In this document: piece after piece, positions 2,656-24,224 of the stretch
How the letters are laid out: each line of letters begins with the position of its first letter
Position numbering within the stretch: position 1 is the first letter of the stretch
DNA from: a virus
Lineage: Duplodnaviria > Heunggongvirae > Uroviricota > Caudoviricetes
Virus record (IMG/VR): IMGVR_UViG_2548876940_000013
Span: 1 to 24,224 of that record
Direction: 5' to 3' (one strand)
DNA: 24,224 nt
Notes under the pieces: generated by a model
Database searches by the model: none
The model's input: only the letters and a program-made list of their open reading frames with translations
Told to the model about the DNA's origin: nothing
Made by a program: the position numbers and the translations under genes

Positions 2656-2658
2656 AAA

Positions 2659-3160: not shown

Positions 3161-3169
3161 AGCTGTGTG

Positions 3170-3270
3170 GCGAAGTAACCACTCTTAACACGATACAATA
3201 ATTTTTGCGTACGCGTTAGCGTTTTTGTAAGATTAACAAATAAATCGAAAAATCATAATCGGATGATTTC
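3170..3270. promoter_or_regulatory. AT-rich divergent control region: candidate late promoter/Q-utilisation site (- strand) and promoter of the cargo cassette (+ strand)
   Basis: Roughly 100 bp AT-rich, non-coding on both strands, located between the tR-prime-like hairpin and the start of the 3271 gene. No confident -35/-10 assignment. Confidence 0.3.
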
Positions 3271-4293: not shown

Positions 4294-4300
4294 GGTTATT

Positions 4301-4885: not shown

Positions 4886-4906
4886 GCCCTACAGGGGCTT
4901 AATAAT
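4879..4906. other. Perfect 11-bp stem hairpin spanning the convergent stop codons of the cargo cassette and Q
   Basis: ttattaagccc-taca-gggcttaataa. The stops of the 4301-4885 gene (+) and of Q (-) lie 3 nt apart inside this structure. No U-tract on either side. Confidence 0.4.
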
Positions 4907-5239: not shown

Positions 5240-5256
5240 CAACCTTCTCCACAAAA

Positions 5257-6252: not shown

Positions 6253-6253
6253 C

Positions 6254-7063: not shown

Positions 7064-7082
7064 ACTTCGTTTCTCCTCTTAA

Positions 7083-7472
7083 TCAGGCGGCTGCACCCGC
7101 CGTTTTCTCGTACTTACTGATAGTGATTTCGACCTTCCCTTCCGGGATAACCGGTCCCCACTCCACTAGCATTCTTTTCACCTGACTGTCGTCTTCCCAC
7201 ACACCCGCGTGGGTCATGGCGTCAAACAGCGCCTTGTTATAGTTGTCCAGATCGCGGATCCGGTTATCCGGAGGAAACAACACGATCTCCACTGAAGCAG
7301 GTGCCGACGTTGGTTTCGGCAGACGACGTAACTGCTCAACTATTGCTGCGCACGCCGCGCTCTGGAATTTTCGCCCCGCCTCGCTTATCAGGCTCTTACC
7401 TGCAAACGCCCCTTTGTTGGGGTGTCGCCAGTACGTGTTCACGCTGGGCGGAAAAGGCAGAATCAGCTTCAT
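7083..7472 (-). CDS. rusA: Holliday-junction resolvase RusA
   Basis: 129 aa with LPFPPSVNTYWRH and the acidic catalytic region RDLDNYNKALFDAMTHAGVWEDD, as in RusA. Typical nin-region position. Confidence 0.85.
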   Translation of the reverse strand: MKLILPFPPSVNTYWRHPNKGAFAGKSLISEAGRKFQSAACAAIVEQLRRLPKPTSAPASVEIVLFPPDNRIRDLDNYNKALFDAMTHAGVWEDDSQVKRMLVEWGPVIPEGKVEITISKYEKTAGAAA

Positions 7473-7795
7473 ACTTTCATGCCCCTCTTATGTAACCAGT
7501 GGGTTGCACGCAGCCTGGCGTTTTCCTCACCGGCAAGCAGTGCGCGGATAATCCCGACCGCCTCGCTGTCGTCGTCCTTGACCGCGGTATGAAGCGTTAT
7601 CCCCCGGGCCACACCACGCTTTATCGTGATGACGCCTTTTTTCTCCAGTGCGCGAAGATGCTCCACCGCTGCATTCACCGAACGGTATCCCAGCATGGTT
7701 GCCACCTCCTGATTGGTTGGCGGGAAGCCACGTTCTTTCTGATAAGAAATCAGCATATCCAGCACCTGCTGCTGGCATTGAGTTAACGTCGTCAT
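7469..7795 (-). CDS. LexA-like DNA-binding protein (N-terminal winged-helix domain only, no S24 peptidase domain)
   Basis: QQQVLDMLISYQKERGFPPTNQEVATMLGYRSVNAAVEHLRALEKKGVI parallels the LexA N-terminal domain, including the recognition-helix SxNAAxEHL pattern; the protein ends about 40 aa later. ATG at 7795 overlaps the upstream stop (TAATG). Confidence 0.7.
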   Translation of the reverse strand: MTTLTQCQQQVLDMLISYQKERGFPPTNQEVATMLGYRSVNAAVEHLRALEKKGVITIKRGVARGITLHTAVKDDDSEAVGIIRALLAGEENARLRATHWLHKRGMKV

Positions 7796-8283
7796 TACGC
7801 CCCCACGTAATTCCCTGACAGATACCACTCATCACTCGATACAGCGCGCTTGCTGCTTTTCCGTAAACACTGCTCACGACGCGCCAGAAAATTGTTTCGT
7901 TCTGGCTGGGAGTGGCTTTCACGGAATGCCGCCATCCACACCGTTGCAGCACGACGGTATAAGCCCCTTGACTCCAGTTCTTCAGCCTGGCGGGTCAGGC
8001 ACAAAATCACCCGGGGATCGTTAGTGCCGACATAGAAATTGCGCACAGGTCTGGTTTCACGAACTGGTTGTGGTTCCGGCTCCTGCGCTCTCTCAGTCAG
8101 GCGCGGGAAATGTCTGCGTGTATCTCCTTCACAACGGTGAGCCACACGCCCACTCTGACGTAACTTGCTTGCTGACTGCAGAACGCGCTGCCGTGAGTAA
8201 CCTGCAAAAGCATCCGCAATGTCTCCGGAAGTACACCCCGGATGGGCTTCAATGAATTTCTGAACTTCATTCAAAAGACTCAT
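7795..8283 (-). CDS. Hypothetical regulatory protein with a PerC-like C-terminal motif
   Basis: C-terminal GLYRRAATVWMAAF resembles the PerC-family signature as recalled. ATG at 8283 with SD aggggg. Confidence 0.4.
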   Translation of the reverse strand: MSLLNEVQKFIEAHPGCTSGDIADAFAGYSRQRVLQSASKLRQSGRVAHRCEGDTRRHFPRLTERAQEPEPQPVRETRPVRNFYVGTNDPRVILCLTRQAEELESRGLYRRAATVWMAAFRESHSQPERNNFLARREQCLRKSSKRAVSSDEWYLSGNYVGA

Positions 8284-8285
8284 AA

Positions 8286-9227
8286 TCACCCCCTGAATCC
8301 TGCCGGGATCTGGCTGTAGTCCACGTTGTCGTAACTGGCTTTGAAGTACGGGTCTTCACGTTTTTCTGTGTGCGTGCTGACGGACGGCGATAAGCGCAGG
8401 GAAAGCTCATCCCATTTTTCCCGCAACTTCGACGGGCTGAGCACGTTACGGCACCAGAACGGATCGCGGCTGACGCGGCTGTACATCTCGCAGATTTGTT
8501 TGTGAGTACGACCATCCTGCACACACATCAGGCGAATTTCGTTTGCCCAGGCTGTCCAGTTAGGTTCTTTGGGACGAACCACCTCGCCGTCACATTCGGC
8601 GGCCTGCTCGTACAGGGCGATGATTTTTTTCCAGAGCCACTGTGCGCAGGTCAAATCATCCTGCGTTCCCCACTGGCGCTTTTTAGGGCTGAATACAACC
8701 GCATCAGGATGGCGAGTTAAAAAATCCTGTTCATCCATCTGCGTGTCCGGTTGCGAAGCGTCCGGACGAGAAGGTTTTTTATCTGATGGATCATGTTTTG
8801 ATTTTACTGACGGATCCCCGCCAGATTCTGACGGGTGAAAACCCGCTTTTTTGCCAGATTTCGACGCATCAAATTTTGACGGGTCAGATTTTGATGCGTC
8901 AGATTTTGACGGGTCAGAATCTGACAGTTGAGAAAATGCCGCTGCCTGAAGCTTCGCAACGTTAAGCTGATAAACATTCGACGCATTGCGGTTACCCTGG
9001 CGACGCGCCTTACGCGTTAACCAGCCTTCTGCTTCCAGCCGTGCGATAGCCGTTCTGACGGTACTCATCCCCGCGCCAATCTGACGGGCAATGGTTTCAA
9101 TTGATGGCCAGCACACACCTTCGTCATTACTGAAATCAGCCAGGCGGGCCATAATTGCCACGCTGGATAACTTCATGCCTGATGCAGCGCAACCATCCCA
9201 TACATAGCCGGTTAATTTAGTGCTCAT
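8286..9227 (-). CDS. Phage replication initiation protein (winged-helix N-terminus, iteron-encoded linker, DnaT-like C-terminus)
   Basis: N-terminal HTH (WPSIETIARQIGAGMSTVRTAIARLEAEGWL). Central low-complexity repeat SDPSKSDASKSDPSKFDASK encoded by the iterons. C-terminal end SQIPAGFRG resembles the E. coli DnaT C-terminus as recalled. Confidence 0.7.
   Translation of the reverse strand: MSTKLTGYVWDGCAASGMKLSSVAIMARLADFSNDEGVCWPSIETIARQIGAGMSTVRTAIARLEAEGWLTRKARRQGNRNASNVYQLNVAKLQAAAFSQLSDSDPSKSDASKSDPSKFDASKSGKKAGFHPSESGGDPSVKSKHDPSDKKPSRPDASQPDTQMDEQDFLTRHPDAVVFSPKKRQWGTQDDLTCAQWLWKKIIALYEQAAECDGEVVRPKEPNWTAWANEIRLMCVQDGRTHKQICEMYSRVSRDPFWCRNVLSPSKLREKWDELSLRLSPSVSTHTEKREDPYFKASYDNVDYSQIPAGFRG
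8800..8927. repeat. Origin-of-replication iteron array inside the replication gene
   Basis: Seven copies of a roughly 15-bp unit (consensus agattttgacgggtc), four contiguous at 8871-8927 and three more at 8800-8870, with an adjacent AT-rich tract at 8771-8800. Confidence 0.7.
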
Positions 9228-9396
9228 GACCGACCTCTATTTCCCTGAATTTACGACGAAACTGTTCGAGCGGACTGAAGCATTCATGCTCATAACCTTC
9301 GCGGAGGTAGATAACCCGTTGTGTTTCCGGCTCCCAACGAATGACTCTGACGAGCACTCCGTAGTGATCTTTGAACCAGCGGTTAACTTGTCGCAA
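9217..9396 (-). CDS. Small hypothetical protein (59 aa, TTG start), alternative frame to the 9237-9575 ORF
   Basis: TTG at 9396 preceded by a strong SD aaggag with 8-nt spacing. Product ([40 protein letters not shown]...) looks protein-like. The stop overlaps the replication gene start. Confidence 0.3.
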
Positions 9397-9575
9397 AGGA
9401 CTGTCTCCTTCTGCCGGTTGAAATCACCCACAGCCCACTCTGCAAAGCTGTGGGTTACAATTTCCCTGTCACCTGGTACATTCACTGCATAGCAATATTC
9501 CACCTTCGCTTTTCCACCCGGTACAGGAAGCGCAATCAGTTGCGAGCGACGGTAGTGTGTTGTTAAACTGTTCAT
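9237..9575 (-). CDS. Hypothetical protein (112-aa ORF; the C-terminal half looks low-complexity and may be the wrong frame)
   Basis: ATG at 9575 with SD ggagaaa, overlapping the upstream stop (ATGA). The N-terminal 55 aa look plausible; the Ser-rich remainder overlaps the better-looking 9217-9396 frame. Confidence 0.35.
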
Positions 9576-10162
9576 GCGTTAGTTTCTCCACAACCAGAAG
9601 CAATCGACGCCACGACGCCCGGAGCTGCACACTCGCGGGCGTCATTACTTTCTGAAATGCAAAAAATTTTGTAGACAAGTGCTGCATGCTCCTGCAGCTT
9701 CGAAATTGAGAGATACAGCTCGTCGTTAATTGCTGTCTTCTCATGCGGTTCCACTACGCCGTCTTCGATTGCTGAACGAATCTGTTTTGAATAACTGCCG
9801 ATCTGTTCAATGACTTCCAGCAGACGCTGGTTAATATCGGCGTTGTCCACATCCTCGACGTCAGGAAGAGACACAAAGACGCCATTTGCAGACTGCGCCA
9901 CAGCATCAGCAATGAAGTGAGTGCCACCAGCACGCTGTAAAACCATTGCCCATCCCAGCGGGAAAATCTGATCGCCATCTGCACGAAGGCGGTTGAATAA
10001 AGCGTTCTCTGTTACATCCAGCCAGTCAGCGGCTTCAGCGTAACCCCCCGGCAACGCCGCGATAGTTTTTCTGACAGCTTTCACGTACCACTCAGGCTGT
10101 TTTTCTATTTTCCAGTGATGCTTACCCACGGCTATCTCCTTAAAACTGTGGTTACTTTTCAT
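9572..10162 (-). CDS. Hypothetical early regulatory protein (CII/YdaT-position)
   Basis: Occupies the slot after the cro-like gene. The track start (TTG 10234) overlaps the cro-like gene, so the ATG at 10162 is preferred. No motif recognised. Confidence 0.4.
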
Positions 10163-10400
10163 CTGATGAATCTTTAATCTTTTGAAAAATATCTGGACGT
10201 AATTTTTCTTTTGATATGCCAGTGGTCTTTTCAATGAATATCGAGAGCTTTGCAGGGGGACGCTTTTCTCTGTTCAACCAGTTCCAGACATGTTGTTGCT
10301 TTACTAAATGACCGCTGCTGGCTGTGAGCTTCCGAGCCAATTCTGATTGACCACCAGCCAGAGCGATTGCCTCCGATAAGGCTAATTGCTCAGGTGTCAT
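10152..10400 (-). CDS. Cro/YdaS-like HTH regulator
   Basis: 82 aa with the HTH ALAGGQSELARKLTASSGHLVKQQHVWNW. Strong SD aaggagaaa. Divergent from the CI-like repressor across an operator-containing spacer. Confidence 0.7.
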   Translation of the reverse strand: MTPEQLALSEAIALAGGQSELARKLTASSGHLVKQQHVWNWLNREKRPPAKLSIFIEKTTGISKEKLRPDIFQKIKDSSDEK

Positions 10401-10535
10401 AGCTTTCTCCTTTTTTGGTAGTTAAGTTGTTACGAGCTGCAAGAATACAACATTAACAACTTTTACCACAACTTTTAGGTGTTGGAAAGCTAAAACATAA
10501 AGTTGTAACCTCATCAAAAAAGAGAGGGATATGTT
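10401..10535. promoter_or_regulatory. OR-like divergent promoter/operator region between the cro-like and CI-like genes
   Basis: 135-bp spacer with repeated acaactttt units and the inverted copy aaagttgt (caacttttaccacaacttttaggtgttgg ... cataaagttgtaacc). Confidence 0.5.
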
Positions 10536-11222
10536 GTGAAAACACTGGCAGAACGATTAAAGATAGGTAGAGAGAAAGCTGGCATGAGCCAAGCTCAACT
10601 AGCTGAAAAAATTGGACTTTCACAACAATCTGTAGCCAAAATAGAGAATGGCGAAACTCTACAACCGCGCAAAATTAAAGAAATTGCAAAAGTTTTAGGT
10701 GTATCACAAAAGTGGTTACAACTTGGTATTGAAGACAACGCATCCATACCTGATCTTGTTGTAAAAGAAGCAGAAAGCACCGCATTAGACCCCGATATTT
10801 TCGTAAACATTCCTGTTTTAGATGTCGAGTTATCGGCAGGTAACGGATGTCTGGCTGAAATAGTTGAATCAGCTATTGACTGGTTTCCGTTAAGAAGAGC
10901 AGATTTGAGAAAATCTGGCGTATGTGCATCTAATGCCAAGATCGTACAAATATGGGGGAACAGTTTATTACCGGTTCTCAATAATGGAGATCTTGTTGCC
11001 GTTGATATTTCTCAAACCGTTCCTATTCGTGATGGCGATCTTTATGCCGTACGAGATGGTGTATTGCTAAGGGTTAAAATACTTATCAACTTACCTGACG
11101 GTGGCTTGATTCTTAGAAGCTTCAACAAAGATGAGTACCCAGATGAAATACTCACCTTTGAAGATAGACGAGCCAGAATTCATGTTATAGGTAGGGTATT
11201 CTGGTCATCGCGAACTTGGTAA
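10536..11222 (+). CDS. CI-like prophage repressor (XRE-type HTH plus S24 LexA-like peptidase domain)
   Basis: N-terminal HTH (MSQAQLAEKIGLSQQSVAKIENGE) and C-terminal S24 fold with Ser (GNSLLPV) and Lys (LRVKIL) in the expected places. GTG start with SD agagaggg. Confidence 0.85.
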   Translation: MKTLAERLKIGREKAGMSQAQLAEKIGLSQQSVAKIENGETLQPRKIKEIAKVLGVSQKWLQLGIEDNASIPDLVVKEAESTALDPDIFVNIPVLDVELSAGNGCLAEIVESAIDWFPLRRADLRKSGVCASNAKIVQIWGNSLLPVLNNGDLVAVDISQTVPIRDGDLYAVRDGVLLRVKILINLPDGGLILRSFNKDEYPDEILTFEDRRARIHVIGRVFWSSRTW

Positions 11223-12095
11223 TGCATCGAAAAGCATTTCTTCAGAAATAATTTTAAGTTTTGCACCATTATCATCCCTATAAGATATAGCCTTTTCGAT
11301 CTTCCTTCCGTGACTAGAGAATTTCCAATCACGGGAGGAAAGCGTCCCAATTACTAAAAAATCCAACTTTTGAGTAATTCCACTACTGATGTTCCCACCA
11401 GCATTTTTAATCAAATTTTCAACTACGGCTCTCTTTCCTGCAACAAAAGTGCCTGTAAGACAATAGGTTTTACCCTCTAACTCTATCGAAGCCCCTACAT
11501 CAATAGGCAGCCTGGTCGCCAAACCATCCACCACCCCACTTTCCAAGTCACATCCTGTGAAGTCTACTAATGCCTTATGTAGAGTTAAACTCTCATCTTC
11601 AGTAATAACACCATCTTTAAGAATTTCCTTTACAAGTGCATAAAGTTTTTTTCCTGGGTAGTTGTTCTTCAAAGCTCCATTTTGCTCAAGCCACCAATTA
11701 AGATATCTTATTTCTTCTTGAGTTAAGTTCCGATCAGCAATTAATCCTTTACATAGTCCATTAAGTAAATGGACATCTACATCCTTGGAGTAAAAATCAA
11801 TTTCAGGGATATCAAGAATTTCCCTCTGTATTTGGAGAAGACTATTTTTAAGGTCATCACGTTCTTCTGATGTGATTATTCCATCCACAAGAATATCCGA
11901 CACCCGTGCAGATAGACTTTTTATAACTCCATTATTGATAATCTGCTTTGCTTCAAGTAACCATGTATCTAAGTAAAGAACCTCCTCTTCACGGACAACT
12001 CCATCTGCAATGATTCCATCAATGATGCTAATCAAGTTAGCAAATAACTTGTCCCGGTTCTGTGTGTAATTAAAAGCGTAAAGCGCGTCTTCCAT
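11205..12095 (-). CDS. TerB-like-repeat / BRCT-domain protein in the immunity region (candidate exclusion/defence factor)
   Basis: C-terminal BRCT signature GKTYCLTGTFVAGKRAVVENLIKNAGGNISSGITQKLDFLVIGT...KLKIISEEMLFDAL, as in the LigA BRCT. N-terminus has four repeats of about 38 aa with the motif [IL]xDG[IV][IV]TxEE. ATG at 12095 with SD aaggagg; track start is GTG 12125. Confidence 0.7.
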   Translation of the reverse strand: MEDALYAFNYTQNRDKLFANLISIIDGIIADGVVREEEVLYLDTWLLEAKQIINNGVIKSLSARVSDILVDGIITSEERDDLKNSLLQIQREILDIPEIDFYSKDVDVHLLNGLCKGLIADRNLTQEEIRYLNWWLEQNGALKNNYPGKKLYALVKEILKDGVITEDESLTLHKALVDFTGCDLESGVVDGLATRLPIDVGASIELEGKTYCLTGTFVAGKRAVVENLIKNAGGNISSGITQKLDFLVIGTLSSRDWKFSSHGRKIEKAISYRDDNGAKLKIISEEMLFDALPSSR

Positions 12096-12300
12096 ACAAC
12101 CTCCTTTTTTTGATAATCCTTGCACTCCTTGGCTACTCGTTCAAACCACATAAAGTTGTTGACAACATTCAAAACCACAACTAAATTACAACTTAAAGGT
12201 GTTAAGACAACGAACAGGCAGGACGCCCACGAAGTAGCCGCTTGGGGCATATGAAGTCCAGGATGATTCGTTGAGTCATGTTGTGCCACTAGGCACTCAT
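12096..12300. promoter_or_regulatory. OL-like operator/promoter region (candidate pL driving + strand early-left genes, with a divergent promoter for the BRCT gene)
   Basis: Contains the near-palindrome aaagttgttgacaac and the motif acaacttaaaggtgtt, which match the units in the cro/cI spacer. Confidence 0.4.
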
Positions 12301-12319
12301 GTTAAAGCAGGTGTATGAA

Positions 12320-12595
12320 ATGAAAGTCCAGATTTTAAACAATAACTGTGAAGTCGTTTGGTCATACGACATAGCCGCCCCTGTAGATCAGAGCGGCGAT
12401 AGCTGGACCAATGGGAAACATCAGATTATGGCTGGAGTTGTGTTCTCTTTACGCCGTGCTTTGGAACAGGCTGAAGTATTTCCATCAGACCCTGAATGGA
12501 AATGGCCTTTTTCTATTTGTCCAAATTCGGAGAGCACATTTCAGAAAATTGGTCAGAAAGTCGCACTCGAAGAGCATCAGCCAACTGTTTCCTGA
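12320..12595 (+). CDS. Hypothetical early-left protein
   Basis: ATG at 12320 with SD aggtg; the track start at 12299 has no SD. The 3-prime end overlaps a - strand ORF, so one of the two may be spurious. Confidence 0.4.
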   Translation: MKVQILNNNCEVVWSYDIAAPVDQSGDSWTNGKHQIMAGVVFSLRRALEQAEVFPSDPEWKWPFSICPNSESTFQKIGQKVALEEHQPTVS

Positions 12596-12758
12596 TTTTT
12601 TCAGGTAACTCGTCGGCATCGCAGAAACAACAACGCTCGATCATGTTGAAAGCCGATTCGTAGAACTGTTTCTGCTGAGTGTCGCTGAGACAGGAAAAGA
12701 GCGACGTTACGATGATTTTATTAATTGCATTATCAAATTCTTTTTCATCAAAAGTCAT
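12513..12758 (-). CDS. Hypothetical small protein
   Basis: 81-aa ORF with SD aaggaaa before the ATG. Product looks protein-like (acidic, Cys motif CCFCDADE). Confidence 0.35.
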   Translation of the reverse strand: MTFDEKEFDNAINKIIVTSLFSCLSDTQQKQFYESAFNMIERCCFCDADELPEKIRKQLADALRVRLSDQFSEMCSPNLDK

Positions 12759-13011
12759 TTGATTTTCCTTTTATGTATACGGGCTTAAAAGGATACCACC
12801 GAGCCTGAAGTGGTGAAAAGACAGGCACATAACAGCTAAGTATTTTCAACCAAAGAGAATCCTTAGCGTTGTGGTGAATGCGGCTCAGCGCACGCGGGTT
12901 AAGGTTGAGGCTGACAGTCGACCTTCTGTGGATACCCACCCGCCTGGTGTGCAACCTTCGCCAGGCACCGGGAGGCACCCGGCACCACAACTTTATGCTG
13001 TGTGTAGTCTT

Positions 13012-13068
13012 GGCGGTACCAGCTTGTACCCTTGCTTCCGGCTGGTACCGTCCTTTTTACAAAACAGA
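13012..13068 (+). terminator. Strong hairpin with a downstream T-run (candidate early-left terminator/attenuator)
   Basis: 10-bp stem cggtaccagc / gctggtaccg around a 17-nt loop, followed by tcc-ttttt. Lies in a GC-rich stretch with no convincing ORF. Confidence 0.4.
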
Positions 13069-13195
13069 GAAGAGCATCACCGGACGACGGGCTCATAACC
13101 CAATCCATCCGGGCGGCGGCCACCACAAGTGTTCTTCTCTGTTTTGTGGAGAAACTAATAGGCCTTGCAGGGTCGATATGATGAGGAGCAGCAAA

Positions 13196-13558
13196 ATGGC
13201 TAGCGAACGCAGTACTGATGTACAGGCATTTATCGGGGAGCTGGACGGCGGCGTATTTGAAACCAAAATCGGCGCAGTTCTCAGTGAAGTCGCTTCCGGT
13301 GTGATGAACACGAAAACCAAAGGTAAGGTCTCGCTCAACCTGGAAATTGAACCATTTGATGAGAACCGTGTGAAAATCAAACACAAACTCTCATATGTTC
13401 GCCCGACTAACCGCGGGAAAATTTCCGAAGAAGACACTACCGAAACGCCGATGTATGTCAATCGCGGTGGTCGCCTGACTATTCTGCAGGAAGACCAGGG
13501 ACAATTACTGACTCTTGCCGGTGAACCTGACGGAAAACTCCGCGCAGCAGGTCGTTAA
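13196..13558 (+). CDS. YfdP-like phage protein (120 aa)
   Basis: ATG at 13196 with SD gaggag. The longer track ORF from 12878 runs through the structured leader and is not credible. Size and position upstream of YfdQ/YfdR-like genes match the CPS-53 arrangement as recalled. Confidence 0.55.
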   Translation: MASERSTDVQAFIGELDGGVFETKIGAVLSEVASGVMNTKTKGKVSLNLEIEPFDENRVKIKHKLSYVRPTNRGKISEEDTTETPMYVNRGGRLTILQEDQGQLLTLAGEPDGKLRAAGR

Positions 13559-13623
13559 TATCGTTCTTAATAAACTGATTATTTATCTCATCACTGAATA
13601 TCTTTGTATAGTGAGGACTTATT

Positions 13624-14448
13624 ATGTCTCAGAACTTAGACGCAACCGCAATTAATCAAATCCATGCCCTTATTTCTGCTCAGGGTGTTAATGAAATTAT
13701 CAGTAAGATTGGTGCCGACGCAGTGGCGTTACCTGAAAATTTCCGCATTCATGATCTGGAAAAATTTAATTTAAATCGCTTCCGTTTCCGTGGCGCGCTT
13801 TCCACTGCCAGCATCGATGACTTTACCCGTTATTCTAAAGATCTTGCAGATGAGGGCACCCGCTGCTTTATCGATGCTGATAATATGCGTGCCGTCAGTG
13901 TGCTTAACCTGGGTACTATTGATGAACCAGGTCACGCAGATAACACCGCCACTCTCAAACTGAAAAAGACAGCACCGTTCTCTGCTCTGTTGTCTGTTAA
14001 TGGCGAGCGTAACCCCCAGAAATCACTGGCAGAATGGATTGAAGACTGGGCCGACTACCTTGTGGGCTTTGATGTTAATGGTGACATCATTCAGGCAACA
14101 AAAGCGGCTGCGGCGGTCCGTAAAATCACGATTGAAGCAAACCAGACCGCTGATTTTGAAGATAATGACTTCAGCGGAAAACGCTCCCTGATGGAGTCTG
14201 TCGAAGCGAAGACCAAAGACATTATGCCAGTGGCATTTGAATTTAAATGCGTTCCGTTTGAAGGCCTGAAAGAACGTCCGTTTAAATTACGCCTCAGCAT
14301 TATCACTGGCGATCGTCCTGTACTGGTACTACGCATTATTCAGTTGGAAGCAGTGCAGGAGGAAATGGCTAACGAATTTCGTGATCTGCTTGTTGAGAAA
14401 TTCAAAGACAGCAAAGTAGAAACCTTTATTGGTACTTTCACCGCCTGA
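13624..14448 (+). CDS. YfdQ-like (DUF2303) phage protein
   Basis: 274-aa ORF with SD gagg. Length and neighbours match CPS-53 yfdQ as recalled. Confidence 0.6.
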
Positions 14449-14460
14449 TTTCATTACTGC

Positions 14461-14483
14461 AAATGCCCCTGCGGGGGCATTTG
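14461..14483 (+). other. Hairpin downstream of the YfdQ-like gene
   Basis: aaatgcccc-tgc-gggggcattt, a 9-bp stem with no clear U-tract. Confidence 0.3.
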
Positions 14484-14576
14484 TGGAAACGTAATTGACT
14501 CAATAATCGCCTGATGGCGAGGGTTTTCTTTAACCAAAATTCAGCGCGGTGCAGCGCATATAACGTGGAGAACAAA

Positions 14577-15113
14577 ATGTCATTTATTAAAACTTTTTCC
14601 GGGAAGCATTTTTATTATGACAGGATAAATAAAGACGACATCGTTATTAACGATATCGCGGTTTCCCTTTCAAATATCTGTCGCTTTGCAGGACATCTTT
14701 CACACTTCTACAGCGTCGCCCAACATGCGGTGCTTTGCAGCCAGCTGGTACCGCAGGAATTTGCTTTTGAAGCGTTAATGCATGATGCAACAGAAGCGTA
14801 TTGTCAGGACATCCCCGCTCCACTGAAACGCCTTCTTCCTGACTATAAACGGATGGAAGAAAAAATAGACGCCGTAATCCGTGAGAAATACGAGTTACCC
14901 CAGGTTATGAGTACGCCTGTGAAATATGCCGATCTCATCATGCTGGCAACCGAACGCCGCGATCTCGAGCTAGATGATGGCTCTTTCTGGCCTGTACTGG
15001 AAGGTATCCCGGCAACAGAGATGTTCAAAGTTATTCCTCTAGCTCCTGGCCATGCCTACGGGCTGTTTATGGAGCGTTTTAAAGAGCTGCATAAGATACA
15101 TAAGCAATCCTGA
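14577..15113 (+). CDS. HD-domain phosphohydrolase (YfdR-like 5-prime-deoxynucleotidase)
   Basis: HD-domain metal-binding pattern (H...HD within SVAQHAV ... LMHDATEAY). ATG at 14577 with SD gtggag gives 178 aa; the track start at 14514 is upstream. Confidence 0.75.
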   Translation: MSFIKTFSGKHFYYDRINKDDIVINDIAVSLSNICRFAGHLSHFYSVAQHAVLCSQLVPQEFAFEALMHDATEAYCQDIPAPLKRLLPDYKRMEEKIDAVIREKYELPQVMSTPVKYADLIMLATERRDLELDDGSFWPVLEGIPATEMFKVIPLAPGHAYGLFMERFKELHKIHKQS

Positions 15114-15168
15114 CAGCGAAATTAACTAGTGAAATAGTTTTGTAGCAAAAGAAATGAGGTTATCAAAA

Positions 15169-15414
15169 ATGCTTCAAATGCTGACACTTGAGGAATGGGC
15201 TGCGGAAAAATTTAGGAGTAATCCTCCAAGTGTGTCCACATTGCGCCGTTATGCTAAGCAGAATTTATTTTGTCCACCGGCAATGAAACAAGGTCGACTA
15301 TGGCGAGTGCGTGAGGACGCAGAGTTAGTTGGGGAATTAGTTACCCCTGTCATCAAGAAAAGTGATTCTATTATTCTACAAAGGATTTTAAGTAATGGCA
15401 GCCAGACCACGTAA
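15169..15414 (+). CDS. xis: Excisionase (lambda Xis-like)
   Basis: MLTLEEWAAEKFRSNPPSVSTLRRYAKQNLFCPPAMKQGRLWRVRED parallels lambda Xis (MYLTLQEWNARQRRPRSLETVRRWVRECRIFPPPVKDGREY). The 3-prime end overlaps the int start. Start could be 15154, 15169 or 15178. Confidence 0.75.
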   Translation: MLQMLTLEEWAAEKFRSNPPSVSTLRRYAKQNLFCPPAMKQGRLWRVREDAELVGELVTPVIKKSDSIILQRILSNGSQTT

Positions 15415-16522
15415 AAATAATGTTTCAGTCCCGAACTTGTATCCGCTCTATAGCAGAAAAGTAAATAAAGTCTATTGGCGATATAAGCATCCAGTGACCG
15501 GGAAGTTTCATTCTTTGGGCACAAACGAAGCTGAAGCCATTGCCATTGCCACTGAGGCCAATACACGCCTGGCTGAGCAAAGAACCCGGCAGATTCTGGC
15601 TATCAGTGACAGGATCGCAACCAACAAAGGAAAAGCAATCACAACGTCAACCTGGTTAGATCGCTATCAAGCAATCCAGGATGACAGACTGAAAAGTGGC
15701 GATATAAAGCTCAACACCTATAAACAGAAAGCCAAACCAGTATCCTTGCTCAGGGAACGAGCAGGACTGAAGTTAATTTCAGCCGTTGATGTCAGGGATA
15801 TAGCCCAGTTGCTTGACGAGTATATCGCCGCCGGACAGCCGAGAATGGCGCAAGTAGTTCGCTCCGTCCTGATTGATGTTTTCAAAGAGGCACAGCACTA
15901 CGGAGAAGTACCTCCTGGCTATAACCCGGCATTAGCTACTAAACAGCCAAGAAGAAAAATTACACGACAGCGGCTAAGTCTTGAAGAATGGCAAAAAATC
16001 TTTGATATCGCAGATGCCAGTCATCGCTACATGGGAAATGCCATGCTGCTAGCATTGGTTACTGGTCAGCGGTTAGGTGATATTTCACGTATGAAATTTA
16101 GCGATATTTGGGATGATCATCTTCACGTCATCCAGGAAAAAACCGGGAGCAAAATCGCCATCCCGCTTTCTCTTCGTCTCAACGCGATTAACTGGAGTTT
16201 ACGCGATGTAGTCGCCCGCTGCCGTGACTATGCAGTCAGCCCATACCTTGTACATTTTTTCCGTACTACTTCACAAGCTGAACGTGGCGCGCAGGTTAAA
16301 TCCAATACATTGACCATGAATTTCAGTAAAGCGAGGGATTTAGCAGGAATTGACTGGGGTGATGGCTCACCCGCAACATTCCATGAACAAAGGTCTTTAT
16401 CTGAACGTCTGTACAAAGAACAGGGGTTAGACACACAAAAACTGCTTGGTCATAAAACGCAACAACAAACCGATCGTTATCATGACGATCGCGGCAAAGG
16501 ATGGAGCAAAGTAGCGTTGTGA
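15395..16522 (+). CDS. int: Lambda-family tyrosine integrase
   Basis: 375 aa collinear with lambda Int: arm-binding N-terminus (NLYPLYSRKVNKVYWRY), ALVTGQRLGDISRMKFSDI, KTGSKIAIPLS, and the C-terminal HEQRSLSERLY...LLGHK...YHDDRG with the catalytic Tyr region. Confidence 0.95.
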   Translation: MAARPRKNNVSVPNLYPLYSRKVNKVYWRYKHPVTGKFHSLGTNEAEAIAIATEANTRLAEQRTRQILAISDRIATNKGKAITTSTWLDRYQAIQDDRLKSGDIKLNTYKQKAKPVSLLRERAGLKLISAVDVRDIAQLLDEYIAAGQPRMAQVVRSVLIDVFKEAQHYGEVPPGYNPALATKQPRRKITRQRLSLEEWQKIFDIADASHRYMGNAMLLALVTGQRLGDISRMKFSDIWDDHLHVIQEKTGSKIAIPLSLRLNAINWSLRDVVARCRDYAVSPYLVHFFRTTSQAERGAQVKSNTLTMNFSKARDLAGIDWGDGSPATFHEQRSLSERLYKEQGLDTQKLLGHKTQQQTDRYHDDRGKGWSKVAL

Positions 16523-16744: not shown

Positions 16745-19213
16745 CTATGATTTAGGTAAGTACTGTTTTAGTTTGTCAATAAATTGATCGATCTCTGCAG
16801 AAGTGAGTTCTGTTAGCTCACGTTTGCATATACCTACTGCCTCATCAAATCTCGAAGTTAAAGTTAACCAAATAGCTTTAAACCTTATAAAACTGCCGTA
16901 TGTTTGAGATTTAGGTGAATCAGTTTTTTCAAGAATTCCAATAGCATACTCTAATTTATCAATTCTTTTATATTGTATAGCTAGGTCACAGAGCGTTAAA
17001 ACAGGATATTTTATATCAGGAAAGTCCATGATCCCATTTTCAATTAGGGTAAATGATTCATCAACTTTATTATCAAACCTAGCAAGTGCCTTAGCTTTGG
17101 CGGAGCAATAAATTTCCTGTGCGCGTTGGGCTTGATTCGATTTTAGTCGTTCAAGTATATCCTCTACTAAACCTGGTTCAATATGTGAATCATCCTTGTA
17201 AAAAAGGCAGTTTAAATAATTATTAGCATTTATTGGATTATTTTTCTGCCTTTCATAAACTTCCTTCGCCAATCCCAAAGCAAGTTCGTGCTCATCATTC
17301 TGTAAATACAACAATACCAGTTCACTTTTTGAACGGTGGTCATTAGGTCTTTGCCTTAAAACTCGCTTATAGCTCTCAATTGCCCGAGAACGTTGGCGTG
17401 TTATTCTAAAATAAAAACCATGCAGGAATGAACTTTCTGGTTCAGGAACATCTCGTACCGCATTAAAAAACTCTCGATCATGCAGTCTTGCTAGAGACTG
17501 GCATTTCATAAATAATATGTGTTCTATAACATTTGAATGCATATATTGAGCATTTGAAAGAATCTGATCAGCTAATCTCACAGCTTCTTTATAGTTCGCA
17601 GATCCACCTTTTTCGTATAATGATCTTATTGTTTTTACAAAATATGAAGGAACTAACACTCGACTATCTATATCTTTACCGGTTTTTATAGCCTCCTGAA
17701 TGGAGAAAATATATTCCGAAATATCCCTATTGTTGTCTGTATATTCTTCAATGAACTTCTTAATATGCTTACTCAAAACATCATCATATTCACTGGTGGT
17801 TCCAAACTTACTTCTTGATATGTAATCCTGTATTACTTGGTTTACCCTGATATAATCATTATTCACACCTAATTGATCACATACAGACATATTGATGAAG
17901 TTTTGCGTAATTGGATAAAACTCCACTTCATCTACTAATGAAAAAAGGAACTCATAGCTAATGAATTCAAATTTTGAAAGGAAATATAAAAAATCTAACT
18001 TACGCTGATCATGGGAAAAACTTTCAACTATTACTTTTGCCTTATCATCAGCATATTCTCTTATTAAATGTGAATCTTTTTTCACTGAATAAAGGTTCGT
18101 ATCCGATATACTATCCACGGCAAAAAGAACTTGCTCTGGATAACCCGAAAGTAGGTCTGAGAAAAAACGCAGATCTTCAGGGCATAAATCTAAACCTTTA
18201 TATGTTGCATATCTTTTCAAAAGCCCTCGTCTTTCTTGAGTATTCAATTCAGGAATTTCTTCAAAGTAATACTCTGGATTTCTATAAGAAAATGTTTTAT
18301 TACCTCTAAACTTAGATGCTATACAGAAAGTCAAGTGACCATAATGTTTAATATGATCTGTAATCCTTACAAACCAACTTACAATTGTACTATCAGGTTG
18401 AACTATAGCTCCTTTATCTTCAATTAGGATTCGTTCTTTTTCTTCTATAATTCCTTCTATAAGCTTTACCGCAATATTAACTTTATCACTTATTGAAGTG
18501 GTCATTAAATCATGAATTTTACCAATATCGCATAAGCCAAGATCATTTATTTTTAAGATAAAGTCTTCTATACTATCTGAAGACTCGATTTGTATTATAG
18601 GAAATTCATAAGACTCTCTTATAGCATTAGATTTTATAAGAGCGTTCTTCATAAAAGATTTACGGCCAATTGAATCCAAACCTGAAGCAATAAAAACTAC
18701 AGGAGGAGATTTATCAAAGTCATCAAAACGTTGCTCAACGTTAGTCGTTTTCTCATTTCTACCCACAAATATTTTTTGTCTTTCTTTCAATGCAGGATGG
18801 GTTTTAAATGCAATCTCTCGTAGTCGAGCATTAATTTTTCTAATTGCAACGTTAGGCTTCCGAATTGGCTGAATATTAAAACCTTCCTTCATCCAGGATG
18901 GGACCCTTGGATCTGTAAAAGTTATTTTGTCATCTATTATAATTGGATAAATACGTTGCAGATGACCATCCTCTACTTTTTTCTTTGCTAAGCGCATTTC
19001 CTCTTTAACCCAATCAGACTCTAATGCAGAATCAGAAAGAAATAAAACAAAAAGAGATGTATCATCTAGCCCCTTTAATATTTCCTCTGATGGGGACATG
19101 CCTTTTTCAAAAGTCTGCTCATCGAAAATTCTAGTTTCTTTGCGAAGCCCTGAAGCAACAACTCGTACATAGTCCTTGTCTTTTGAACTATGTGAAAGAA
19201 AACATTTTATCAT
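16745..19213 (-). CDS. TIR-domain protein with a central NTPase-like region and C-terminal TPR-like repeats (STAND/NLR-like antiviral candidate)
   Basis: N-terminal TIR motifs (CFLSHSSKDKDYV; LFVLFLSDSALESDWVKEE with a candidate catalytic Glu). Middle region with a degenerate P-loop (FIASGLDSIGRKS) and a Walker-B-like ERILIED about 75 aa later. C-terminal roughly 300 aa of helical TPR-like repeats. Visibly AT-rich; sits between int and the icd-derived arm. Confidence 0.8.
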   Translation of the reverse strand: MIKCFLSHSSKDKDYVRVVASGLRKETRIFDEQTFEKGMSPSEEILKGLDDTSLFVLFLSDSALESDWVKEEMRLAKKKVEDGHLQRIYPIIIDDKITFTDPRVPSWMKEGFNIQPIRKPNVAIRKINARLREIAFKTHPALKERQKIFVGRNEKTTNVEQRFDDFDKSPPVVFIASGLDSIGRKSFMKNALIKSNAIRESYEFPIIQIESSDSIEDFILKINDLGLCDIGKIHDLMTTSISDKVNIAVKLIEGIIEEKERILIEDKGAIVQPDSTIVSWFVRITDHIKHYGHLTFCIASKFRGNKTFSYRNPEYYFEEIPELNTQERRGLLKRYATYKGLDLCPEDLRFFSDLLSGYPEQVLFAVDSISDTNLYSVKKDSHLIREYADDKAKVIVESFSHDQRKLDFLYFLSKFEFISYEFLFSLVDEVEFYPITQNFINMSVCDQLGVNNDYIRVNQVIQDYISRSKFGTTSEYDDVLSKHIKKFIEEYTDNNRDISEYIFSIQEAIKTGKDIDSRVLVPSYFVKTIRSLYEKGGSANYKEAVRLADQILSNAQYMHSNVIEHILFMKCQSLARLHDREFFNAVRDVPEPESSFLHGFYFRITRQRSRAIESYKRVLRQRPNDHRSKSELVLLYLQNDEHELALGLAKEVYERQKNNPINANNYLNCLFYKDDSHIEPGLVEDILERLKSNQAQRAQEIYCSAKAKALARFDNKVDESFTLIENGIMDFPDIKYPVLTLCDLAIQYKRIDKLEYAIGILEKTDSPKSQTYGSFIRFKAIWLTLTSRFDEAVGICKRELTELTSAEIDQFIDKLKQYLPKS

Positions 19214-19747
19214 TTGAAGTCCTTTTTTTTCATTTTAGGGAGCAAATGCCATATTTGTACTTTACATCTTTCGAGAGCAGGCGAAAAGCTGTGTAACTTT
19301 CCCATATAATTCTGACACTTATAGTAAAAAATGTTTGTGAATATTGATCTTTATCACATATTCCCTGTTTCTTTGTTACTCACTTACTGCGAGCTTGTAT
19401 CTCGACGTATGGTTTTAGATTCTCATTTAGTTGCTAAAAATAGACTGAAGCAACTGTAACTTAGAGTGCGTACAGTCAAGAATCCCCGCTGGCGGGCAAC
19501 AACTTTTGACAACTCACTCCCATCACCAACTGACGGACCGGTTCCCGGTTGATTAACACATTGTGATGTCAGCAATCTCCGCTCACAGCACAAAGCAGCC
19601 AACTACAACGCCGTAAGGCAATTTTGAGCGAGGAGCGGAAGCTGGCAATAGAACTACCATCTGACCGACCAACCTACCCCGAACTACCAGGGGGTTTTGA
19701 TAACTTATTTTGATAAAATTTTGATAACCGTTAGCAGGCTAACAAAA

Positions 19748-19780
19748 AACAACGGGCGTGTTATACGCCCGTTATAATAT
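19748..19780 (-). terminator. Rho-independent terminator of the icd 3-prime arm
   Basis: Stem aacgggcg / cgcccgtt with a 7-nt loop, followed on the - strand by gttttttgtt, beginning about 17 nt after the icd-fragment stop. Confidence 0.6.
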
Positions 19781-19796
19781 TTAACACATGTGGTAA

Positions 19797-19958
19797 TTAC
19801 ATATTTTCGATGATCGCGTCACCAAACTCTGAACATTTCAGCAGCTTAGCGCCTTCCATCAGACGTTCGAAGTCATAGGTTACGGTCTTCGCGTTGATTG
19901 CGCCTTCCATACCTTTAACAATCAGGTCTGCGGCTTCAGTCCAGCCCATATGGCGCAG
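19797..19958 (-). pseudogene. icd: Orphan 3-prime fragment of isocitrate dehydrogenase (icd): phage-borne attachment-site arm, as in phage 21/e14
   Basis: - strand translation [53 protein letters not shown] matches the Icd C-terminus as recalled. An in-frame stop lies immediately upstream (19980-19982) and no upstream frame encodes Icd. Confidence 0.8.
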
Positions 19959-19979
19959 CAGCATTAATATATGCCTCAT

Positions 19980-20405
19980 TCATAAAATGTAAAAGAGCAA
20001 GCTCGTACCAGTAGGGGGAAAATTCATTGACATGTCCTGTCAATACGTACAGAGCCCTGCCATGCTTGCCAGCACGTAACAATTCCGCCCCCAGTAACCA
20101 GCGTGTCCCCTGATTATTCTCAGGGTTATATGTTAGTATTTTATCAATGAGTATAACGGCATCCTGATGACGCTGTAAATGAACATTCGCCAGAATTGCA
20201 GCATAAAGAGCGCAAATGCATATGCCAGATGAGCGTGAATATCAATGATGTCAGGAGCATGTCTGGCAAGACGCCTGAGTTTGTTGACGTAATTTGTTTC
20301 GTTTATTTCATCACTATCGTATGCGTCAAGAGTTTTTTCAAATTCATCCCGAAATGGGCCAAGCCTGGTTTCAGGAAATAAGAAATACCCCTGGTTATTG
20401 TTCAC
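19980..20405 (-). pseudogene. Decayed ORF of unknown origin
   Basis: A 90-aa ORF (GTG start) and the following segments read protein-like in one - strand frame, interrupted by three stops before running into the icd fragment. Confidence 0.3.
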
Positions 20406-21113
20406 TTAAAAGTATAATTTGTAATTCAAATCCTGAGTCTGTAAAGCGGGGAGTAACATATTCTATTCTGAAGATAATAAAAGTCGTGATGCGATGTATC
20501 AAGCCCGGATTGTAATCCCAGATTAACATAGATCACAAAACAACTTATTCTTCACTAACGTCAAGATAAATATCGTTGTATGCCTTATCACGACTACGAA
20601 TACCAGCAAGATACAACTGACATACGGAAAGATACCACGTTTTTTACTCCCGAAAATAACGCTAAAAAGCTACTTCCCCATCGTTTGTCCTTAGTATTGT
20701 CAGCGCCAACAATGTGGGCTGACATGATAAAGCTGTCTAGGAAATTGTTCGCCTCCTCAGCGGACAATCCAAATGGTGATTGTCTCTGTTAAACGTTTAT
20801 TTTGAAGGTCACTGAATAAGGTGATGACGCTGTAGAATTTTTCACGTGCCACAGAATTTTGAACGCTTTCTCTTACAATATTTCAATGTTTCTATCAGTA
20901 TTCGCCGGAAGAAGTCATCGACCAAATCATCCCAGTCGTCTCGCACCACTGACCATTCATGGTTGACATGTGGTGGAAATCCGCTTCTACAGTAACCATT
21001 TTTTATTCGCAAAACCGAACACGCCATACGGATAGCTGTTAACTGGCATGCCGAGGCAGTCGTTATTTATATTTAGTTTTGTCAATAATCTTTATTTTTT
21101 GTAAAAGGCAAAT

Positions 21114-21132
21114 ATAAATTATTCTCATTATT
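21114..21132 (+). promoter_or_regulatory. Candidate Fur box upstream of the TonB-dependent receptor gene
   Basis: ataaattattctcattatt matches the 19-bp Fur consensus gataatgataatcattatc at 12 of 19 positions, best in the right half. About 50-70 bp upstream of the ATG. Confidence 0.3.
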
Positions 21133-21183
21133 GTTTGTATTTGTGTATTGTCTTGCCGGTTAACATGATCGGAGATTAGTAAT

Positions 21184-23274
21184 ATGCGAATAACCACTCT
21201 GGCTTCCGTAGTCATTCCCTGTCTCGGATTTTCAGCCAGCAGCATAGCTGCTGCAGAGGATGTGATGATTGTCTCGGCATCCGGCTATGAGAAAAAGCTG
21301 ACTAACGCAGCCGCCAGTGTTTCTGTGATTAGCCAGGAGGAATTGCAGTCCAGCCAGTACCACGATCTGGCGGAGGCTCTGAGATCAGTAGAGGGTGTGG
21401 ATGTTGAAAGTGGTACGGGTAAAACCGGAGGGCTGGAAATCAGCATCCGAGGAATGCCAGCCAGTTACACGCTGATACTGATTGATGGTGTTCGTCAGGG
21501 CGGAAGCAGTGACGTGACTCCCAACGGTTTTTCTGCCATGAATACCGGGTTCATGCCCCCTCTGGCCGCCATTGAGCGTATTGAGGTTATCAGAGGGCCG
21601 ATGTCCACACTGTATGGCTCTGATGCGATGGGCGGTGTGGTGAATATCATTACCAGAAAGAATGCAGACAAATGGCTCTCTTCCGTCAATGCAGGGCTGA
21701 ATCTGCAGGAAAGCAACAAATGGGGTAACAGCAGCCAGTTTAATTTCTGGAGCAGTGGTCCCCTTGTGGATGATTCTGTCAGCCTGCAGGTACGCGGTAG
21801 CACACAACAGCGTCAGGGTTCATCGGTCACATCACTGAGCGATACAGCAGCCACGCGTATTCCTTATCCCACGGAGTCACAGAATTATAATCTTGGTGCA
21901 CGTCTTGACTGGAAGGCGTCGGAGCAGGATGTGCTCTGGTTTGATATGGATACCACCCGGCAGCGTTATGATAACCGGGATGGGCAACTGGGGAGTCTGA
22001 CGGGGGGATATGACCGGACCCTGCGCTATGAGCGAAACAAAATTTCAGCTGGCTATGATCATACTTTCACCTTCGGAACATGGAAATCGTATCTGAACTG
22101 GAACGAGACAGAAAATAAAGGTCGTGAGCTTGTACGCAGTGTACTGAAGCGCGACAAATGGGGGCTTGCCGGTCAGCCGCGGGAGCTTAAGGAATCGAAC
22201 CTTATCCTGAATTCATTACTGCTTACCCCTCTGGGAGAATCTCATCTGGTTACGGTGGGGGGCGAGTTTCAGAGCTCGTCCATGAAAGACGGAGTTGTCC
22301 TTGCCAGCACAGGTGAAACTTTCCGGCAGAAAAGCTGGTCGGTATTTGCTGAGGATGAGTGGCATCTCACGGATGCACTTGCGCTGACTGCGGGCAGCCG
22401 CTATGAACATCATGAGCAATTCGGGGGACACTTCAGTCCGCGTGCATATCTGGTCTGGGATGTGGCAGATGCCTGGACGCTGAAAGGCGGTGTGACCACG
22501 GGATATAAGGCACCCAGAATGGGGCAGCTACATAAAGGGATTAGTGGTGTGTCCGGGCAGGGAAAAACAAATCTACTTGGTAACCCCGACCTGAAGCCGG
22601 AAGAGAGCGTCAGTTATGAGGCTGGGGTGTATTACGATAACCCCGCCGGTCTGAATGCCAATGTCACAGGTTTTATGACTGACTTCTCCAACAAGATTGT
22701 CTCTTATTCCATAAATGATAACACCAATAGCTATGTAAACAGCGGAAAGGCCCGGTTGCACGGTGTGGAATTTGCCGGCACATTGCCGCTGTGGTCAGAG
22801 GATGTCACGCTGTCACTGAATTACACCTGGACCCGAAGTGAACAACGTGATGGTGATAACAAAGGTGCGCCGCTGAGTTATACCCCTGAACACATGGTGA
22901 ATGCGAAACTGAACTGGCAGATCACCGAAGAGGTGGCATCATGGCTGGGTGCCCGTTATCGCGGGAAAACACCACGTTTCACCCAGAATTATTCGTCACT
23001 GAGCGCTGTACAGAAGAAAGTGTATGATGAGAAAGGAGAATACCTGAAAGCCTGGACGGTGGTGGATGCAGGTCTGTCGTGGAAGATGACGGATGCCCTG
23101 ACGCTGAATGCTGCGGTGAATAACCTGCTCAACAAGGATTACAGTGACGTGAGCCTGTACAGTGCCGGTAAGAGTACGCTGTATGCCGGTGATTACTTCC
23201 AGACGGGATCATCAACAACAGGATATGTGATACCTGAGCGAAATTACTGGATGTCGCTGAACTATCAGTTCTGA
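21184..23274 (+). CDS. iha: TonB-dependent outer-membrane siderophore receptor, Iha/IrgA-like
   Basis: 696 aa. Signal peptide, TonB-box-like EDVMIVSAS, plug and beta-barrel, C-terminal ...NYQF ending in Phe. SD ggag 9 nt upstream. Length and N-terminus match Iha as recalled; the symbol is tentative. Confidence 0.85.
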   Translation: MRITTLASVVIPCLGFSASSIAAAEDVMIVSASGYEKKLTNAAASVSVISQEELQSSQYHDLAEALRSVEGVDVESGTGKTGGLEISIRGMPASYTLILIDGVRQGGSSDVTPNGFSAMNTGFMPPLAAIERIEVIRGPMSTLYGSDAMGGVVNIITRKNADKWLSSVNAGLNLQESNKWGNSSQFNFWSSGPLVDDSVSLQVRGSTQQRQGSSVTSLSDTAATRIPYPTESQNYNLGARLDWKASEQDVLWFDMDTTRQRYDNRDGQLGSLTGGYDRTLRYERNKISAGYDHTFTFGTWKSYLNWNETENKGRELVRSVLKRDKWGLAGQPRELKESNLILNSLLLTPLGESHLVTVGGEFQSSSMKDGVVLASTGETFRQKSWSVFAEDEWHLTDALALTAGSRYEHHEQFGGHFSPRAYLVWDVADAWTLKGGVTTGYKAPRMGQLHKGISGVSGQGKTNLLGNPDLKPEESVSYEAGVYYDNPAGLNANVTGFMTDFSNKIVSYSINDNTNSYVNSGKARLHGVEFAGTLPLWSEDVTLSLNYTWTRSEQRDGDNKGAPLSYTPEHMVNAKLNWQITEEVASWLGARYRGKTPRFTQNYSSLSAVQKKVYDEKGEYLKAWTVVDAGLSWKMTDALTLNAAVNNLLNKDYSDVSLYSAGKSTLYAGDYFQTGSSTTGYVIPERNYWMSLNYQF

Positions 23275-23302
23275 TAATAACAAAACGCTATCACTGACGG
23301 TA

Positions 23303-23341
23303 GAATACGTTGCCACTGCAACTCCTGGCGGAACAGTGGCA
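23303..23341 (+). other. 12-bp stem hairpin downstream of the receptor gene
   Basis: acgttgccactg-caactcctggcggaa-cagtggcaacgt. No strong U-tract. Confidence 0.3.
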
Positions 23342-23491
23342 ACGTATTAGGTTAAGTGCATTTCCGATCCGCTAATGAGATTTCGTTACCAACAACTAAT
23401 ATCGTCACAGGAAATGCACGGATTATTTTTAACTTATCATTTACATACTTGTCCAGAGTGTAAGCGCACCGTGAAGGACGTGGGGTAAAAA

Positions 23492-23745
23492 TTAGTTTAC
23501 AGAGAGAGTGACGTTCCAGGGCAACAACTCTTTCATGCGGTTGGCAGGCCAGGTGTTGATTACACTGATCACGTGGCGTAGCCACGTTTCCGGCTCGATT
23601 CCGTTAAGTTTTGCAGCTACCGATCAGGCTGTACATCACTGCCGCACTATCGCTCGTCATCTCAAAGTCCGGTCTCGTCAGCAGGAAGGTATCATTCTCT
23701 CCCGCCATTTTTCCAGGGGCCCGGTCAGATAAGTCCCTTTGTCTA
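23492..23745 (-). pseudogene. Frameshifted C-terminal remnant of a transposase (IS66-family-like, tentative)
   Basis: Two adjacent - strand frames read ...DTFLLTRPDFEMTSDSAAVMYSLIGSCKT and NGIEPETWLRHVISVINTWPANRMKELLPWNV, joined only by a frameshift. The LLPWN-type C-terminus recalls IS66 transposases. Confidence 0.35.
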
Positions 23746-24224
23746 TCGCTGACTCCTGACTCATAACCCGGTTAGCAGAATGCAGGGTCACCACCTCGCC
23801 ACGACCGAATCCGAATAAGTCAATTGTACCTTCTCAATCGCCATTTTGTCACAATTAAGTTTGATAAAGCAGGTCACCTCTGCACTGAATCTGCTCCAGT
23901 GCCTCATTGGTTTCCGTCCCCCCCTTTAAACTGCCGGATAAGACTGCTGCACAGCGCCTTCCCCGGAATCAAATCACTTTCCCTGTCCGCCACAATCCGC
24001 TTCATGCCACCTCGTATTTTGTTTCAGAGACCGAAATCTGCCAGAAAGTGACTACGCGTGCACATATCGGTTTTCTGGGTTACATGCATCGTGTTATTTT
24101 CTGAAATGCAAAATAATAAAAAACAAGGACACATAATGAAGGATGAAATACACAGTACCAGCATCAACCGTAAGCGTACAGCGAGGGCCGTATTGACGGG
24201 GATGTGTTATTCAGCTGGCAGTGC

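Follow-up and report, generated by a model that had tools for sequence, protein, structure and literature searches.

The window, by which we mean the whole stretch of DNA analysed here, comprises all 24,224 nt of draft contig AIAU01000050.1 (assembly GCA_000446445.2). Positions 1 to ~19964 make up the int-proximal arm of an e14-type prophage, with its arm repeats, TIR-NLR gene, int and xis, and positions ~19958 to 24224 are DNA of an iha island. The prophage arm aligns in pieces, at 95–97% identity, with the icd-integrated prophages of many complete E. coli genomes, in which the genes run in the order icd, variable cargo, intE, xisE, early genes. The island side is 99–100% identical to the islands of many E. 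coli.

From the contig end inwards, positions 1–15153 hold the remaining prophage (early, regulatory and lysis region), at the same piecewise 95–97% identity to icd-integrated prophages. Next come an excisionase gene (15154–15414, plus strand; Pfam Exc, E=1.8e-12), the gene for an e14-type tyrosine integrase of 375 aa (15395–16522, plus strand; Pfam Arm-DNA-bind_1 and Phage_integrase) and, on the minus strand, a TIR-NLR cargo gene of 822 aa (16745–19213), matched over its full length by the PADLOC TIR-NLR model (E=4e-167) and by Pfam TIR_2. A repeat family search found three direct repeats TTATCAAAA(T/C) at 19694–19727 (minus strand), the putative arm-type integrase sites of the P' arm. On the other side of the break, the island DNA that forms the bacterial arm of the junction (19965–24224) contains iha (21184–23274, plus strand), identified by its Pfam Plug and TonB-dependent receptor domains and by annotation in related islands, and a frameshifted transposase remnant at ~23492–23642, whose annotation is transferred from a related locus, L001. 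An Rfam scan of the window gave no matches. Within the prophage, a 306-aa ORF on the minus strand (11205–12125) corresponds to a "BRCT domain-containing protein" annotated beside the XRE/S24 repressor in related prophages; BRCT domains are unusual in the immunity regions of phages.

Between the arm-type repeats and the island lies an orphan end of icd. The minus strand from 19961 to 19797 encodes the last 54 codons of icd and its TAA stop (165 nt), a segment that belongs to the P' side of the att site. Its Pfam Iso_dh match covers profile positions 299–348 of 348. From 19955 to the stop codon the fragment aligns in register with the 3' end of icd in strain G47-1, with 5 differences, and it shares 96% identity with the icd-like part of the attP of phage 21. 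The fragment is a genuine feature, and a chance match is excluded. It is followed by an intrinsic terminator (19775–19749, minus strand), an 11-pair stem and then a T-run, with a folding energy of -17.5 kcal/mol and a z-score of -2.35. To its 5' side there is an in-frame TGA (19982–19980, minus strand) and no icd body, the DNA from 19958 upward being iha island; the tail is fused to no icd body and has no evident function at this locus. An earlier, sequence-only reading of this DNA had picked out the last ~50 icd codons with a clean terminator on the minus strand, the in-frame stop just upstream, the TIR cargo and int beyond the terminator, and an Iha-like receptor with a transposase remnant on the other side, and in all of this it was correct. 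It had named two findings that would have counted against it, namely a fragment that fails to align with icd at the nucleotide level and a frameshifted but complete icd body directly upstream; the alignment is in register, and the flank is island DNA.

The join has also created a small chimeric reading frame, since it supplies the icd tail with an ATG at 19964 and so gives a 55-aa ORF (19797–19964, minus strand); a 60-aa version starts from an ATG at 19979. A Shine-Dalgarno-like GAGG lies at 19973–19976, nine bases 5' of the ATG of the chimeric ORF, and a predicted sigma-70 promoter-like sequence, TTTACA-16-TATATT, lies 5' of the ORF at 19993–19966 in island DNA. The 60-aa version is absent from protein records. 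The 55-aa product is on record, besides the window, only for contig DADCCD010000030.1, where the identical product is annotated as "isocitrate dehydrogenase" in GenBank.

By its sequence, the att/int module is e14-type, because the window Int is 96% identical to the annotated IntE of strain G47-1 and only 59% identical to the Int of phage 21. The replacement copy of the icd 3' end (~165 nt) lies with its terminator by the crossover core, genes for a heterobivalent tyrosine integrase of the lambda family and for an excisionase lie beside the att site, and the three TTATCAAAA repeats lie 3' of the terminator in the layout of K-12 e14. What is missing is integration in icd with completion of its reading frame, the DNA upstream being island with an in-frame TGA. 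In every feature tested save its location outside icd, the module thus belongs to the e14 family, and the suggestion that the fragment is the phage-side arm of a phage 21/e14-type element is borne out by the att module, the repeats and Int.

The slot between att and intE is a variable cargo and defence hotspot. It is occupied by the TIR-NLR gene in the window, and the same slot is found at 4375–6461 of locus L003 and at 768–2901 of locus L020; in other E. coli the occupant is an AAA ATPase, KAP NTPase, HEPN/Toprim, KwaB-like or DUF262 gene, or TPR together with MBL-fold genes.

We now consider the join itself, numbering the core from position 1 at window 19964 along the minus strand and grouping its bases 4-7-4. 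In this notation the window reads ATGC TGCTGCG CCAT ATGG, the uninterrupted island ATGC TGCAACG GCAT TTCG, the icd attB ATGA TGCTGCG CCAT/C, the K-12 e14 attR (P arm side) CTAA TGCTGCG CCAT and the phage 21 attP ATAC TGCTGCG CCAT. A three-way comparison shows ATGC-TGCTGCG-CCAT (19950–19964, minus strand) to be a hybrid, attL-like core, of which the left half-site is island and the right half-site phage. Island identity reaches down to 19958 and icd/attP identity begins at 19955–19964, with 7 identical bases common to both parents at the join. K-12 e14 attL and attR have only 11 nt in common, ATGCTGCGCCA (positions 4–14), and it is within this block, at the phage crossover core, that the window switches from island to phage. 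The hybrid core occurs once in the window, where 0.07 occurrences are expected by chance. That this is not a simple icd junction, as the sequence-only reading had held, is upheld, and alignment to icd, which it had proposed as the way to find the crossover, places the break within the e14 core at 19950–19964; the partner is the iha island.

At the break point the uninterrupted island reads ATGCTGCAACGGCAT, in which a pair of inverted ATGC/GCAT half-sites flanks a spacer of 7 nt, identical to that of the phage at 5/7 positions; the other half of the site, beyond the break, begins AACGGCATTTCGATATGG. Using a 501-nt probe across the break point of the uninterrupted island to search 5426 complete E. 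coli genomes, we found it in 695 of them, and the site is uninterrupted in all 696 of the 696 records. The window junction is absent from all complete genomes searched and from the plasmid and phage collections, and an exact-pattern scan of the GTDB species representatives gave no matches. Since the site is uninterrupted in every record and the junction is found in no complete genome, the occupied state is derived and rare. We also considered whether the island site is a decayed icd remnant or an old att scar, and rejected this, there being 58/200 in-register identities to icd against 51 ± 5 in other registers.

A second contig, DADCCD010000030.1 (locus L004; GCA_016660085.1), carries the phage arm of the window with 1 difference in the first 4095 nt. 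Here the same phage nucleotide abuts a different sequence, that of the 3' end of a SASA/nanS-p esterase gene located within a lambdoid prophage's late region. The uninterrupted nanS-p site is ATGCTGCTACGGCAT, with the core ATGC TGCTACG GCAT TCAC lying over the last codons of the gene. In the register fixed by the junctions, the two unoccupied targets are identical at 15/16 positions, an agreement between unrelated sequences for which our binomial estimate of the chance probability is ~1e-8. Both have the form ATGC-N7-GCAT, and the overlap matches the phage at 5/7 positions in the island and 6/7 in nanS-p; by a hand count from the sequences, the displaced side bears a modest resemblance to the phage core (island 5/8, nanS-p 3/8). 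The motif ATGCTGCWACGGCAT was found nowhere else in the 21 loci fetched. Thus the target resembles the primary core, and independent events have struck similar targets, which argues against random breakage, IS activity or misassembly and points to a sequence-specific recombinase.

The nanS-p pseudo-site (4699–4715 of locus L007, NZ_CP116067.1) overlaps the end of the esterase gene (its final five codons and stop codon), and insertion there should alter the C-terminus of the esterase and part its gene from the lysis genes that lie downstream in the host prophage. No further ATGC-type junctions were found among the viral contigs scanned. A third junction of this type, CCCGTAAG joined to ATGCTGCTGCGCCAC and followed by e14-type arm repeats, lies at 1003–1043 of metagenome contig OGWV01052896.1 (locus L022), a 1-kb contig with just 15 nt upstream, too short to be classed as attP, attR or secondary site.

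The two junctions allow the region of strand exchange to be bracketed. Core positions 8–9 are TG in the window, the phage type, where the island has AA. Position 9 is A in L004, the target type, and G in the otherwise identical phage arm of the window, so that the sole base separating the two phage arms matches the target in L004. Position 12 is C, the phage type, in both the window and L004, and G in both targets. Core bases that derive from either parent fit a staggered exchange, in which a heteroduplex overlap is resolved to one parent or the other. Positions 8–9 would then have to sit between the cuts, and the cuts would fall within positions 4–11. Lambda-family integrases cut with a canonical 7-nt stagger; this stagger, the symmetry of ATGC/GCAT and the bracketing bases together make TGCTGCG at positions 5–11 (window 19954–19960, minus strand, phage-type in the window) the most likely overlap, with positions 4–10 a possible alternative. 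In L004 the corresponding 7 nt are TGCTACG, the target type. The overlap region lies inside the ATGCTGCGCCA identity of K-12 e14 attL and attR.

We observe which DNA makes up either flank, exactly where the join lies, a look-alike target and a second independent event, and from these we judge that an e14-type prophage was probably placed by its own integrase into a pseudo-attB of the iha island instead of icd. The events may be pictured as follows. An e14-type temperate phage would carry in its attP the last 165 nt of icd, the terminator and the arm sites, and its circular genome would have been recombined by Int with a pseudo-site ~1.2 kb upstream of iha, where the island sequence ATGC-TGCAACG-GCAT mimics the icd core ATGA-TGCTGCG-CCAT. 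IHF presumably takes part, as it does for lambda. Exchange across the spacer would give the order island arm, overlap and P' arm, the last of these running from icd tail through terminator, arm-type repeats and TIR-NLR cargo to int. Because the insertion lies outside icd, the icd tail would be a passenger with nothing to complete. Catalysis by Int and an overlap at 19954–19960 are thus parts of a proposed mechanism, as is the presence in the island of the whole prophage, beyond its int-proximal arm. The recombination machinery looks intact in sequence, there being an Int with its arm-binding domain, Xis and the three arm-type repeats. Insertion also predicts that the phage P arm should come just before AACGGCATTTCGATATGGATTTTTAAC and that the overlap should read TGCAACG or TGCTGCG; pattern scans of genome and metagenome contigs for this reciprocal junction (P arm and other island half) gave no matches. 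It counts against the account that the phage's own attP is known only indirectly; in viral contigs a P' arm of the window's type is paired with several P-arm types. For lambda, insertion by Int at secondary sites has long been established (Shimada et al. 1975, as cited in PMC6379469). The event proposed here is of a known kind and a new natural instance of it, and it yields an apparent consensus for the targets as well as brackets for the e14 overlap. The proposal in the sequence-only reading that the element had been mobilised into an island was essentially right, and can now be sharpened to a join at the att core with a look-alike core in the island.

Other routes to this junction have to be weighed against insertion. 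The identical junction at the identical core would be produced by an Int-mediated intrachromosomal rearrangement, in which attL of an icd prophage recombined with the island pseudo-site and an inversion or deletion moved the int-proximal arm beside iha. Int-driven inversions between att and secondary sites are on record (Dorgai et al. 1993, as cited in PMC6379469), and our scans gave no reciprocal junction that would speak for insertion. Such a rearrangement would, however, strip icd of its last 54 codons, and must have happened twice, with different partners. Moreover, lambda integrative recombination normally needs a complete supercoiled attP, not attL, which makes attL and a pseudo-site a poor pair of substrates. 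On account of the truncation of icd, the poor substrates and the need for two such events, we regard a rearrangement as unlikely. As the window is a draft contig whose join is found in no complete genome, one may also ask whether an assembler misjoined an icd-adjacent prophage arm and the iha island. Typical assembler k-mers are longer than 7 nt, and the parents have only 7 identical bases at the join; the contig is, furthermore, on record for 2 samples, and in a separate assembly the same phage base is joined in like manner to a near-identical motif, which a random misjoin would not produce. We therefore consider a chimera very unlikely.

The sequence-only reading had itself offered two further explanations, neither of which survives. 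One was loss of the junction through IS-mediated rearrangement, which we widen here to any IS-mediated or microhomology-mediated illegitimate recombination that removed the icd body. Although there are transposase remnants within the island and 7 nt are common to both sides of the join, no IS end lies at or near it (>3 kb separate it from the nearest remnant), the break coincides exactly with the att core, and the second genome shows an event at the same phage base in a 15/16-identical target; such an origin is highly improbable. The other was an attP-like state, to which a tandem arrangement can be added, the upstream DNA then being the distal arm of the phage or the end of a neighbouring icd-integrated element. 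Arrangements of P arm with P' arm do occur in viral contigs and metagenomes. The DNA upstream here matches none of the three P-arm types seen, and continues through the site, phage-free, as island in 696/696 records; nor does the island flank carry decayed icd homology, as the 58/200 identities against 51 ± 5 attest. This we hold to be extremely improbable, and insertion at a secondary site by the phage's own integrase remains our preferred account.

The arms of icd-targeting phages are themselves diverse. Among IMG/VR contigs (loci L010–L019) we observed at least three P-arm types, ending in TTTATATA followed by C, CATCTAACTA followed by A and CATCTAACTA followed by C, and at least three P'-arm types, with TTATCAAAA repeats, with TTCCCCAAAA repeats or with GTTATAAAATAACGTATCAAAA, in many P-arm/P'-arm combinations. 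The combinations suggest tandem icd lysogens or frequent recombination between icd phages at their common icd segment. Protein searches also retrieved hundreds of short ORFs (53–95 aa) with the C-terminus of Icd (matches P0039–P0158), in Citrobacter, Salmonella, Proteus, Serratia, Edwardsiella, Enterobacter and other genera. The unrelated N-terminal extensions of the ORFs retrieved end at one point, just before (L/M)LRHMGW, and their sequences suggest that the same icd position may serve as an integration site across Enterobacterales. One of them, P0093 (MRHILLRHMGW...), seemed to have an island-derived prefix and was rejected; its source is a metagenomic phage contig with an attP of the ordinary 21 type, and the likeness is coincidental.

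If insertion is the correct account, icd-targeting prophages that carry anti-phage defence genes in the slot between att and int can occasionally enter pathogenicity islands or other prophages. An oddity of annotation, a 55-aa "isocitrate dehydrogenase" ORF beside iha, would also be explained. The two natural junctions narrow the e14 exchange region and suggest a half-site consensus, which could aid the prediction of off-target sites and the reading of draft genomes that contain orphan icd fragments; site-specific recombination is understood as before. The sequence ATGC-TGCWACG-GCAT is a better palindrome than the icd core, and a bolder proposal is that the e14-type integrase has in it a second class of target, situated in other mobile elements, rather than having met with two isolated accidents. 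We put this forward tentatively, as a possibility that we rather doubt. This class would be housed in the iha island and, in lambdoid or Stx-like prophages, at the 3' end of nanS-p, and phage and defence cargo would nest in islands and prophages and travel with them. If true, the two junctions would be the first mapping of the e14 overlap from natural isolates, to 7 nt.

The closest known relative of the element is the e14 cryptic prophage of E. coli K-12 (icd::e14, with the icdC remnant), which has the same icd-like 165-nt segment and terminator, the same three TTATCAAAA repeats just 3' of the icd terminator (present also in related viral contigs), the core ATGCTGCGCCA in common with the window and, likewise, a variable cargo slot before intE, holding ymfD, ymfE and lit. 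The window departs from K-12 e14 in having the iha island in place of icd as its left arm, a TIR-NLR gene as cargo and, in the remainder of the prophage, a larger early region of lambdoid type. The icd-targeting lambdoid phage 21 bears in its attP the same icd 3' replacement segment (96% identical) and terminator beside int, and its crossover region is at the 5' edge of the icd segment, as in the window, but its Int is only 59% identical and its arm-type sites are YYTTCCCCAAAA where those of the window are TTATCAAAA. With respect to the event, the nearest parallel is provided by the secondary sites of lambda described by Shimada, Weisberg and Gottesman, in which a heterobivalent tyrosine integrase uses rare core-like sites with a partial match in the overlap, and mismatches in the overlap are inherited from either parent, as they appear to be here. 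The present case differs from that of lambda in its integrase and core, in coming from natural isolates rather than attB-deleted laboratory hosts, and in that both targets lie within other mobile elements.
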